Of a stretch of DNA of 64,000 nucleotides, positions 57,244 to 58,430 are shown one piece after another. Where the stretch lies: assembly GCF_030384885.1 (NCBI RefSeq), contig NZ_CP128613.1. One strand, written 5' to 3'. Origin of the DNA: Escherichia coli (GTDB lineage Bacteria; Pseudomonadota; Gammaproteobacteria; Enterobacterales; Enterobacteriaceae). The first letter of the stretch is position 1. Every line of letters starts with the position of its first letter. The notes beneath the pieces were generated by a model, which made no database searches, was not told the origin of the DNA, and worked only from the letters and a program-made list of their open reading frames with translations. A program made the position numbers and the translations under genes.

Positions 57244-57430
57244 AGATAGTCGAATGGTGGGGAAAAGTCACTCGAAATACGTATGAGATGACGAATGCCA
57301 CACTTTGCGTCTTATTCCTCCGACGTAGAGTCGTTTACGCAGCAAGCGCGGAGTATGTCATCAGGGTCAAGAATTGAAATTGAGAGATGCCTGAATAGCA
57401 AAAAAGCGCCTTTAGGGCGCTTTTTTACAT

Positions 57431-57506
57431 TGGTGGGTCGTGCAGGATTCGAACCTGCGACCAATTGATTAAAAGTCAACTGCTCTACCAACTGAGCTAA
57501 CGACCC
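57431..57506 (-). tRNA. lysQ: tRNA-Lys (anticodon UUU)
   Basis: Reverse complement equals GGGTCGTTAGCTCAGTTGGTAGAGCAGTTGACTTTTAATCAATTGGTCGCAGGTTCGAATCCTGCACGACCCACCA; gene name assigned by order in the lysT operon. Confidence 0.95.
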
Positions 57507-57539
57507 CTTGCGGGATTATGCTGCTTTAATCATTCAGGA

Positions 57540-57611
57540 TGGTGGGTCGTGCAGGATGACTCGACTTCGTCTCGCCCTTCGGGCCGTTGCTGACGCAACG
57601 TTATCCTTCAC
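57540..57611 (-). repeat. spacer repeat carrying the 3' 17 nt of tRNA-Lys plus a conserved roughly 55-nt hairpin-forming segment (copy 1)
   Basis: tggtgggtcgtgcagga + tgactcgacttcgtctcgcccttcgggccgttgctgacgcaacgttatccttcac; contains gcccttcgggc and cgttgctgacgcaacg hairpins. Confidence 0.85.
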
Positions 57612-57638
57612 ATTCTCTACCAGTAACCACCTTTAAAT

Positions 57639-57714
57639 TGGTGGGTCGTGCAGGATTCGAACCTGCGACCAATTGATTAAAAGTCAACTGCTCTACCAAC
57701 TGAGCTAACGACCC
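57639..57714 (-). tRNA. lysZ: tRNA-Lys (UUU)
   Basis: Exact 76-nt match to tRNA-Lys on the minus strand. Confidence 0.95.
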
Positions 57715-57762
57715 ATACGGGTGTTACCTGAATGATTTCTACTCGGGACCAATCTTTAATAT

Positions 57763-57832
57763 TGGTGGATCGTGCAGGATGACTCGCTTCGCTCGCCCTA
57801 CGGGCCGTTGCTGACGCAACGTTATCCTTCAC
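57763..57832 (-). repeat. tRNA-Lys 3'-end spacer repeat (copy 2, diverged)
   Basis: tggtggatcgtgcagga + tgactcgcttcgctcgccctacgggccgttgctgacgcaacgttatccttcacg. Confidence 0.85.
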
Positions 57833-57860
57833 GCTTAACATCTGAGTTTGATGTTAAAAC

Positions 57861-57936
57861 TGGTGGGTCGTGCAGGATTCGAACCTGCGACCAATTGATT
57901 AAAAGTCAACTGCTCTACCAACTGAGCTAACGACCC
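57861..57936 (-). tRNA. lysY: tRNA-Lys (UUU)
   Basis: Exact 76-nt match to tRNA-Lys. Confidence 0.95.
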
Positions 57937-57939
57937 GAG

Positions 57940-58015
57940 TGGTGGGTGATGACGGGATCGAACCGCCGACCCCCTCCTTGTAAGGGAGGTGCTCTCCCAG
58001 CTGAGCTAATCACCC
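57940..58015 (-). tRNA. valZ: tRNA-Val (UAC)
   Basis: Reverse complement equals GGGTGATTAGCTCAGCTGGGAGAGCACCTCCCTTACAAGGAGGGGGTCGGCGGTTCGATCCCGTCATCACCCACCA. Confidence 0.95.
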
Positions 58016-58065
58016 GATACTGCGCTGGATACTACAAACTACTTCCACCGAACCCACCGCATTAG

Positions 58066-58141
58066 TGGTGGGTCGTGCAGGATTCGAACCTGCGACCAAT
58101 TGATTAAAAGTCAACTGCTCTACCAACTGAGCTAACGACCC
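58066..58141 (-). tRNA. lysW: tRNA-Lys (UUU)
   Basis: Exact 76-nt match to tRNA-Lys. Confidence 0.95.
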
Positions 58142-58143
58142 GG

Positions 58144-58219
58144 TGGTGGGTGATGACGGGATCGAACCGCCGACCCCCTCCTTGTAAGGGAGGTGCTCTC
58201 CCAGCTGAGCTAATCACCC
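58144..58219 (-). tRNA. valT: tRNA-Val (UAC)
   Basis: Exact 76-nt match to tRNA-Val. Confidence 0.95.
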
Positions 58220-58254
58220 GATACTACGCTGGATACTACAACTAACTAGGTTAG

Positions 58255-58326
58255 TGGTGGGTCGTGCAGGATGACTCGACTTCGTCTCGCCCTTCGGGCC
58301 GTTGCTGACGCAACGTTATCCTTCAC
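58255..58326 (-). repeat. tRNA-Lys 3'-end spacer repeat (copy 3)
   Basis: tggtgggtcgtgcagga + tgactcgacttcgtctcgcccttcgggccgttgctgacgcaacgttatccttcacg; identical to copy 1 over the first 71 nt. Confidence 0.85.
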
Positions 58327-58354
58327 GTTTTACTACCGCTTCCACCTTAGCGAT

Positions 58355-58430
58355 TGGTGGGTCGTGCAGGATTCGAACCTGCGACCAATTGATTAAAAGT
58401 CAACTGCTCTACCAACTGAGCTAACGACCC
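58355..58430 (-). tRNA. lysT: tRNA-Lys (UUU)
   Basis: Exact 76-nt match to tRNA-Lys; promoter-proximal gene of the operon. Confidence 0.95.

Follow-up and report, generated by a model that had tools for sequence, protein, structure and literature searches.

Spacer repeats of the Escherichia coli lysT tRNA operon as probable short-form members of the RtT repeat family

The spacers of the lysT tRNA operon in a 64,000-nt stretch of the Escherichia coli contig NZ_CP128613.1 (the whole stretch is called the window below) hold three repeats, whose closest described relatives are the repeats of the tyrT-tyrV operon (Bosl and Kersten 1991), which we take to be the 178-bp repeats of Egan and Landy 1978. 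Papers citing the later work describe rtT of tyrT, which measures 171 nt, as a released RNA tied to the stringent response, and state that it was reported to alter how relA mutants respond when starved of amino acids (Bosl and Kersten 1991, via citing papers). Naville and Gautheret noted a similarity between rtT and repeated candidate attenuators. In A. pleuropneumoniae, RtT homologues beside tRNA-Asn and tRNA-Lys genes are visible on northern blots, and in K. pneumoniae RtT RNAs are differentially expressed; one study of that species has four entries named 'RtT RNA', which at 166-170 nt are as long as the Rfam matches in the window. The lysT operon yields a single polycistronic transcript from which RNase P, assisted by RNase E, separates the tRNAs, and the text of the article describing this makes no mention of the repeats (Agrawal et al. 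2014, PMC4176162).

The three units and their family

The main explanation offered here is that the three elements belong, in all probability, to the RtT repeat family (Rfam RF00391) as short forms; the type member of this family is rtT/rttR of the tyrT operon. The lys spacer repeats are an already catalogued family, hence no new class of element. A scan with Rfam 15 placed RF00391 'RtT RNA' on all three units; with 60.6, 60.6 and 54.8 bits they exceed the gathering score of 45. R1, a covariance model of the three-hairpin module alone that holds no tRNA sequence, found exactly the three unit sites in the 64-kb window (66.5-66.7 bits, E ~1e-15) and scored the four units of the K-12 tyrT locus at 65.4-65.5 bits. 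The similarity of the window core to the tyrT units is not compositional, because of this E-value and because only three matches occur in 64 kb. The core AACGuuGC..GCaaCGgCCCGaAGGgCGAg...CGAGUmAUCC of the window units is that of the four K-12 tyrT-locus units. It corresponds to the 3' half of the Rfam RtT model, AaCGucGCgucAGCgaCGgCCCGaAGggCGAgG...CGAgUaAUCCuuCcCccaCCACCA; the model ends with the 3' end of tRNA-Tyr and the units with that of tRNA-Lys. In K-12, the tyrT-tyrV-rttR locus has four full-length Rfam RtT matches (133-137 bits) and the lys operon five matches (46.7-60 bits). A permissive Rfam scan of the region returned only tRNA, RtT and sub-threshold noise (plastid UTRs, YrlA, SpF41), with no ribozyme or riboswitch family.

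The repeats had been noticed in a sequence-only reading, which suspected that they might already be described for E. coli. This proved right, as annotation pipelines label such matches RtT, and PGAP labels one lys-operon unit 'RtT sRNA' in other strains. They are not unexplained, for all three lie above the RF00391 gathering threshold. Their presence in the lys/val operon was confirmed by a repeat finder, by direct reading and by R1, in the lysT>valT, lysY>lysZ and lysZ>lysQ spacers. The units and their parts are listed here, the parts as read directly, with hp1 to hp3 denoting the hairpins of the module and z the deviation of the predicted fold from dinucleotide shuffles.

58255-58328, minus strand: RtT short-form unit A, lysT>valT spacer; Rfam RtT 60.6 bits (match 58255-58423), R1 66.5 bits, predicted fold -28.5 kcal/mol, z -3.8
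Parts of unit A, minus strand: 5' strand ACGUGAAGGAU, 58318-58328; hp1 CGUUGC/GUCA/GCAACG, 58300-58315; hp2 CCC/GAA/GGG, 58290-58298; hp3 GAC/GAA/GUC, 58278-58286; GAGUC, 58273-58277; tRNA-Lys 3' end AUCCUGCACGACCCACCA, 58255-58272
57763-57834, minus strand: RtT short-form unit B, lysY>lysZ spacer; Rfam RtT 54.8 bits, R1 66.7 bits, z -1.9
Parts of unit B, minus strand: 5' strand GCGUGAAGGAU, 57824-57834; hp1, 57806-57821; hp2 CCC/GUA/GGG, 57796-57804; hp3 GC/GAA/GC, 57786-57792; tRNA-Lys-like end AUCCUGCACGAUCCACCA with one C>U change, 57763-57780
57540-57613, minus strand: RtT short-form unit C, lysZ>lysQ spacer; Rfam RtT 60.6 bits, R1 66.5 bits, z -2.7
Parts of unit C, minus strand: 5' strand, 57603-57613; hp1, 57585-57600; hp2, 57575-57583; hp3, 57563-57571; tRNA-Lys 3' end, 57540-57557

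Every window unit sits downstream of a tRNA-Lys gene and is built from a 5' strand (C)GUGAAGGAU, the three-hairpin module (hp1; hp2, CCC-GNA-GGG; hp3) and the last 18 nt of tRNA-Lys, which is all that it retains of the tRNA body. The 18-nt tail equals tRNA-Lys in A and C and has one mismatch in B. The 17-mer TCCTGCACGACCCACCA, searched with up to two mismatches, occurs eight times in the window, in five tRNA-Lys genes and the three units, at an expectation of 0 from dinucleotide-preserving shuffles. An exact 17-nt tRNA-Lys ending had been claimed for each repeat; it is present in C and A only (57540-57556 and 58255-58271), while unit B reads TCCTGCACGATCCACCA with one mismatch. The identity of the first and third copies and the divergence of the second were described correctly: A and C are identical over 72 nt, and B departs from them by 2 substitutions and two 1-nt gaps, 68 positions being identical.

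The tail begins within the T-loop (AUCC...CCA) and is predicted to fold back on the 5' strand, ACCCACCA staying single-stranded at the 3' end. The resulting closing stem of 9-10 bp, (C)GUGAAGGAU with AUCCUGCAC(G) including one A.G mismatch, is predicted in all three units. RNAfold gives A and C the same architecture, in which this stem encloses hp1 (CGUUGC-GUCA-GCAACG), hp2 (GCCC-GAA-GGGC) and a small hp3 (GAC-GAA-GUC); the minimum free energy (MFE) structure of unit B has the closing stem and hp2 only, hp1 being absent. The two hairpins drawn in the sequence-only reading are hp1 and hp2: the MFE structures of A and C contain both, that of B the second alone, and the closing stem and hp3 had been missed. 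With the upstream spacer included, GGUGG is additionally predicted to pair with CCACC in units A and C.

The likeness to the RtT/rttR units of tyrT comprises the core (hp1, CCCGNAGGG, hp3, CGAGUMAUCC), the site just 3' of a tRNA gene within a tRNA operon, the ending with the 3' terminal sequence of that tRNA including CCA, and the closing stem formed by a GGAU-containing 5' strand with an AUCC... 3' strand. In contrast, the window units are about 74 nt long, the rttR units 130-171 nt. They have neither the 5' domain of the latter (GAUGAGAAC motif, second T-arm-like segment, CGAGCG..CGAGA hairpin) nor an internal tpr-like open reading frame, and their tail derives from tRNA-Lys instead of tRNA-Tyr. 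The full-length RtT architecture (about 130 model positions including the 5' domain) is thereby incomplete in the window units. Long forms include the tyrT units, a K-12 unit past lysQ and a unit past proK (101 bits), with the layout [tRNA 3'-end complement]-GGAUGAGAAC-...-[T-stem 5' strand]-GUUCGA-[CGAGCG..CGAGA, hp1, hp2, hp3, GAGUM]-AUCC-[tRNA 3' end]. The K-12 proK unit (locus L126, 449-582) is full-length and lies 3' of the proK terminator; it is followed by a second terminator copy and the start of a further truncated unit, and a BIME-type naRNA4 match (276-355) adjoins.

Homologues, covariation and coding potential

Short-form units also occur in the K-12 serV-argV-argY-argZ-argQ operon (NC_000913.3 2817300-2819000), where three lie in the spacers after argV, argZ and argQ, filled and empty spacers alternating. 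They have the short architecture and the GGAU|AACG junction of the window units (...CCAGGGAGGAU-AACGUUGC....GCAACGGCCCGAAGGGCGAG-hp3-CGAGUA-AUCCUCCCGGAUGCACCA); unlike in the lys units, 5' strand and tail match tRNA-Arg(ACG). R1 scores them at 59.6-66.5 bits, and the Rfam RtT model does not report them at E<0.01. The annotation of the RtT family is incomplete, because this model reports the lys short units only by borrowing the neighbouring tRNA and misses the equivalent arg-operon units. In the K-12 metT operon no module was found.

Species-representative genomes were scanned with the pattern CCCGNAGGGYGA-N(5-20)-GARTMATCC, which gave at least 120 loci. The matches listed include Enterobacterales (Yersinia, Photorhabdus, Citrobacter, Enterobacter, Klebsiella, Serratia, Pluralibacter, Pantoea, Brenneria and others) and other Gammaproteobacteria (Marinobacterium, Marinobacter, Methylophaga, Alishewanella, Thioalkalivibrio and metagenome-assembled genomes, MAGs, of Rhodanobacteraceae). 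Among them, 86 lie within 160 nt downstream of a tRNA called by ARAGORN, representing at least 11 isoacceptors: Lys UUU, Tyr GUA, Arg ACG, Arg CCG, Pro CGG, Pro GGG, Pro UGG, Ser GGA, Gln CUG, Gln UUG and Val GAC. In 73 of these 86 units, the 18-nt tail from ATCC to CCA is identical to the end of the tRNA upstream, an agreement that is not built in, because the scan pattern stopped at ATCC. The CCC/GGG pairs of hp2 are invariant among the matches listed, as required by the pattern.

The other two hairpins vary. In a MAFFT alignment of 47 diverse module sequences, 92.6% of the cells of the three-hairpin structure are paired, compared with 75.9% in shuffles. The covariation score of 0.345 (shuffled 0.121) was reached by none of 500 shuffles, and slid controls stayed at or below 0.071. 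Both-sided changes affect 5 of the 7 hp1 pairs and 4 of the 6 hp3 pairs. Among 149 R1-aligned matches, the 133 distinct sequences, whose alignment is fitted to the model, gave 92.8% paired cells (shuffled 75.2%) and a covariation of 0.397 (shuffled 0.136). Distinct hp1 stems number 47.

The closing stem follows the type of the tRNA. The 7 nt that extend it, anchored at GGAU/AUCC, form 4.72 of 7 pairs with a tail of their own type and 3.22 of 7 with tails of other tRNA types, and 0 of 2000 permutations of tRNA type reached the observed value. An unanchored search for the 5' partner of the tail was too noisy (own type 9.2/12, cross-type 8.3/12). The 5' strand of the long forms belongs to a segment that repeats the tRNA 3' region in inverted orientation, for example GATTCGAACCTGC in the distal lys unit of K-12 and GTCGTGCGGATTTGAACCTGC in Acerihabitans. 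Selection at the RNA level is not needed for such complementarity, because inverted duplication or palindrome correction at the DNA level could yield the same.

That the repeats encode a small peptide, by analogy with tpr (a protamine-like protein) in the tyrT repeats, is extremely improbable. The K-12 annotation does have tpr inside rttR, and a frame starting with ATG (MTRLRLALRAVADATLSF...) runs on the plus strand opposite units A and C (57556-57636 and 58271-58370). No ATG, however, occurs on the transcribed strand of the units, the ends of the antisense frame differ between A and C, and in unit B it stops after 11 codons; being interrupted there, it is probably meaningless. The covariation moreover tracks base-pairing, not codons.

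Strain variation and a possible origin in spare tRNA genes

ARAGORN places the operon on the minus strand at 57431-58430, with five genes for tRNA-Lys(UUU) and two for tRNA-Val(UAC), in the gene order of the K-12 lysT operon. The query of operon plus flanks (1181 nt) has 100% identity to the chromosome of E. coli strain 2013C-4282, but only 1481 genomes match at least 80% of the window operon in one place. Apart from the units, its features are, with tRNA genes called by ARAGORN:

58355-58430, minus strand: lysT, tRNA-Lys(UUU), first gene of the operon and 3'-end donor for unit A; Rfam tRNA 79.2 bits, K-12 order
58329-58354, minus strand: spacer separating lysT from unit A; in the predicted fold its GGUGG may bind CCACC of the CCACCA end of the unit
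58144-58219, minus strand: valT, tRNA-Val(UAC)
58066-58141, minus strand: lysW, tRNA-Lys(UUU)
58016-58065, minus strand: lysW>valZ spacer, 'empty', 50 nt; K-12 and AR_0118 have an RtT unit there
57940-58015, minus strand: valZ, tRNA-Val(UAC)
57861-57936, minus strand: lysY, tRNA-Lys(UUU)
57639-57714, minus strand: lysZ, tRNA-Lys(UUU)
57431-57506, minus strand: lysQ, tRNA-Lys(UUU), last gene of the operon
57400-57426, minus strand: intrinsic terminator AAAAAAGCGCCCUAAAGGCGCUUUUUU past lysQ; terminator function according to Agrawal et al. 2014 (PMC4176162)

Five strains were compared in the lys operon: the window has 3 units, K-12 5, EC42405 4, AR_0118 3 and the O157:H7 strain 2159 1. To the units after lysT, lysY and lysZ seen in the window, K-12 adds one after lysW and one after the lysQ terminator. 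K-12 and EC42405 have a long-form unit and a second terminator copy beyond the lysQ terminator, both absent from the window. The units of AR_0118 follow lysT, lysW and lysY, its lysZ-lysQ spacer measuring 33 nt, and strain 2159 has only four tRNA-Lys genes besides its single unit. The comparison of repeat number with tRNA copy number across strains, which the sequence-only reading had named as its own test, gave the expected outcome: both vary together, at 1-5 units. Empty spacers are precise, the CCA of the tRNA running directly into the flank that elsewhere follows the CCA of the unit; in the lysW>valZ spacer of the window, the lysW CCA leads straight to CUAAUG..., the post-unit flank of K-12. 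Of 5426 complete genomes, 5261 have the lys-type core, each at 1-11 places (median 6). Strain 3385 has it only in the arg cluster, where just the unit after the last arg gene remains, which would imply a lys operon without units.

Direct repeats containing the tRNA 3' end bound every presence/absence difference among the E. coli strains compared. Because the boundaries fall at these repeats, the comparison supports unequal recombination: exchange between direct repeats would add or remove units, and sometimes adjacent tRNA genes, each spacer thereby becoming filled or precisely empty. The units thus described render the lys/val tRNA array recombinogenic, and the differences among strains in the number of units and of tRNA-Lys genes bear on tRNA gene dosage. 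The tandem repeats could also complicate assembly of the lys locus.

Could the units be plain footprints of tRNA-Lys duplication, in which unequal crossing-over copied a 3' end and an arbitrary spacer, with incidental hairpins? In the lys operons read, the units always follow tRNA-Lys and never tRNA-Val, and the numbers of units and tRNA-Lys genes both vary by strain with boundaries at repeats. But the same module stands after Tyr, Arg, Pro, Ser, Gln and Val tRNAs, joined to the local tRNA end, and its variable hairpins hp1 and hp3 covary. Duplication accounts for the multiplication of units within the operon, not for their nature, and as a full explanation it is most unlikely. The sequence-only reading had suggested tRNA duplication by unequal crossing-over. 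Derivation from tRNA-Lys, for which complete copies in Photorhabdus speak (see below), and the direct repeats bounding strain differences agree with it; the hairpin segment does not. A duplicated tRNA end leaves this segment unexplained, because it is a separate module common to the tyrT repeats and to the repeats of Arg, Pro, Ser, Gln and Val tRNAs.

Tyrosine integrases that target tRNA genes have as their classic signature a partial tRNA 3' end starting in the T-loop. The lys units resemble attachment sites of integrative elements (attR) in their duplicated 17-18-nt tRNA 3' segment with this start, and could be scars of islands or prophages that inserted at the tRNA-Lys 3' end by integrase and were later lost. 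On a prophage-border contig (L138, 2189-2240), the tail of a lys-type unit breaks right after ATCC, as if at an attachment site, and a lys-type unit of Acerihabitans (L047) has 8 mismatches in its tail, diverging a few bases past ATCC; both pseudo-3' ends look like possible secondary attachment sites of a tRNA-targeting integrase. We nevertheless give this explanation very little credence. The units are tandem and only about 75-180 nt long, with a structured module in place of element DNA, and no integrase or island is present: in the five strains, the cpoB-nadA interval holds only tRNA genes and units. The same conserved module is joined to 11 different tRNA ends, and a scan of 2.9 million viral contigs gave only 16 matches, mostly in host flanks at tRNA loci.

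Complete counterparts of the units are found in Photorhabdus caribbeanensis (locus L027, 5460-7870), where two tRNA-Lys genes are followed by at least 13 tandem units with Rfam scores of 80-89 bits. The 13 tandem units are tRNA-Lys copies that agree with the real gene at 70-74 of 76 positions; in each, an insert of exactly 64 nt separates TTCGA from ATCC in the T-loop. After removal of the insert in silico, ARAGORN calls tRNA-Lys(UUU) in 13 of 13. The array is the same locus as the E. coli lysT operon, as indicated by an Rfam match to the CpoB/ybgF thermometer just upstream (124 bits, 4214-4352). Similar stretches are L025/L026, L050 and L051. In Citrobacter, a tRNA-Tyr copy is interrupted at the same T-loop point.

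We infer from these sequences that RtT units descend from extra tRNA gene copies with a T-loop insert, and read them as spare interrupted copies because those of Photorhabdus and Citrobacter keep the tRNA body around the insert. Spare tRNA-Lys genes would have received the RtT module between TTCGA and ATCC and would later have been reduced to the long form, consisting of inverted T-arm and module, and then to the short form. The Lys and Arg short forms of E. coli would be the most reduced derivatives, Photorhabdus having kept complete interrupted copies.

Transcription, function and dispersed copies of the module

Since the units lie inside the single lysT transcript, they would be transcribed and cut out as spacer RNA at tRNA release, when RNase P, helped by RNase E, frees the tRNAs. 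A search of the literature on small RNAs from the lys spacers found nothing specific. The lys units are most likely tolerated by-products or selfish passengers that chiefly affect how plastic the tRNA gene array is; this reading is favoured because every unit position can be empty.

A selected function of the precursor RNA is conceivable, although we hold it to be rather doubtful. The units might guide or pace processing by RNase E and RNase P, protect neighbouring 3' ends, or mimic the acceptor and T-arm of uncharged tRNA and so modulate the stringent response, as proposed for rtT. In its favour are conserved junction nucleotides, the strong covariation that hp1 and hp3 show across Gammaproteobacteria, the match of the closing stem to the identity of the tRNA and folds stabler than shuffles, as are the northern signals of A. 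pleuropneumoniae, the differential expression in K. pneumoniae and the second-hand relA report cited above. On the other hand, every lys-operon position is empty in some E. coli strain, the total varying from 1 to 5, so no single unit is indispensable. The complementarity of the stem could arise at the DNA level, the long forms carrying an inverted T-arm copy (GGATTCGAACC), and the strand bias of wobble pairs is weak. The text of the one northern study describes no stable lys-spacer RNA (PMC4176162).

Several observations weigh against the main explanation. The covariation and the conserved junction nucleotides argue for a module under selection, beyond a passive relic. The short form has no rtT 5' domain, the window units running from GGAU straight into AACG-hp1, and in the Rfam alignment the model positions 1 to about 58 fall on the body of the upstream tRNA-Lys, with 43-44 nt inserted; we regard this alignment of the 5' half as an artefact and only the 3' half as truly homologous. 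The homologue pattern was fixed (CCCGNAGGGYGA...GARTMATCC) and the taxon sample arbitrary, and the invariance of the pattern positions is partly by construction, because the scan demanded them. Counts of G.U and A.C are 21 and 12, which favours the transcribed strand only weakly, so that the structure may be an RNA or a DNA-level hairpin. The order of insertion and reduction was read from a comparison of living forms and not from a dated phylogeny. In the text of the northern study, probes in these spacers detected large precursors in rnpA49 and 'surprisingly few' wild-type intermediates (PMC4176162).

Spacers of tRNA precursors can act in other ways. Lalaouna and co-workers are said to have described, in 2015, 3'ETS-leuZ and the internal spacer of metZWV as functional RNA sponges. 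The lys units are like them as pieces of tRNA precursors that may be released by processing and act, putatively, in trans. They differ in being repeats; the two sponges are single-copy, belong to no repeat family and base-pair with specific small RNAs.

The module was also found away from tRNAs, inside palindromic intergenic repeats resembling ERIC. In Pluralibacter (L099, about 6530-6720) and Photorhabdus cinerea (L049, about 150-370), it lies between ...GTGCTCGA and ATCCTCACG..., and the junction of this insert is nearly the T-loop context TTCGA^ATCC. Relatives of the repeat without the module occur in E. coli in the pyrH-frr and pheM-pheS intergenic regions (L131, 301-418; L132, 301-411), at a median of 4 places per genome. 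In the MAG 'Proteobacteria bacterium SZAS LIN-96' (L005-L021), at least 17 contigs carry a dispersed palindromic repeat of about 215 nt, which has the module near its apex. The similarity of the host repeat to the ERIC-PCR primers is only partial and its identity with ERIC unproven. Wilson and Sharp reportedly described, in 2006, variants of ERIC in which about 70 bp are inserted at specific internal sites. The module as an insert of ERIC-like repeats is possibly the one new point of this study, the lys spacer repeats themselves being known as RtT short forms; the comparative results sharpen what RtT is.

ERIC-like repeats belong to the class of miniature inverted-repeat transposable elements (MITEs), and those of SZAS LIN-96, Pluralibacter and Photorhabdus carry the module of the window units in a near-T-loop context. 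The window units are not themselves of this class: they are tied to tRNAs, not dispersed, and have no such terminal inverted repeats. In the window the module occurs only at three tRNA-linked sites, and the other genera share the module, not the whole unit.

We tentatively propose, at rather less than even chances, that the module is no degenerate spacer but a small structured insertion, about 62-66 nt long (in one MAG about 85 nt). It would have entered TCGA^ATCC repeatedly, in the T-loops of spare tRNA gene copies for at least 11 isoacceptors and in ERIC-like repeats, and selection would keep its three-hairpin fold. If this is true, RtT RNAs, the short forms of the lys and arg operons and the '70-bp insertions' in ERIC elements would make up one family, a site-specific mini-element of Gammaproteobacteria with a putative mobilising activity that also reshapes tRNA gene arrays. 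The comparative picture gives a testable hypothesis for the origin of RtT, with one covarying module in tRNA T-loops and ERIC-like repeats at TCGA^ATCC.

Three observations on dispersed copies may be added. A resemblance to the 'scaffold plus guide' of TnpB omega-RNA, with the core as scaffold and the variable 18-nt tail as guide, was considered and set aside, the dispersed copies having non-tRNA tails that continue the host repeat. Sub-threshold matches of about 35 bits to the Rfam family sX9, a small RNA of Xanthomonas, lie just 3' of the module in one SZAS LIN-96 contig (L013) and in P. cinerea (L049). In a Rhodanobacteraceae MAG (L081-L090), the module stands within a different small palindrome (GTCATTCCCGCGCAAGCGGGA ... 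TCCCGCTTGCGCGGGAATGAC), whose right junction is again ATCC and whose left junction is GGGA, not TCGA.

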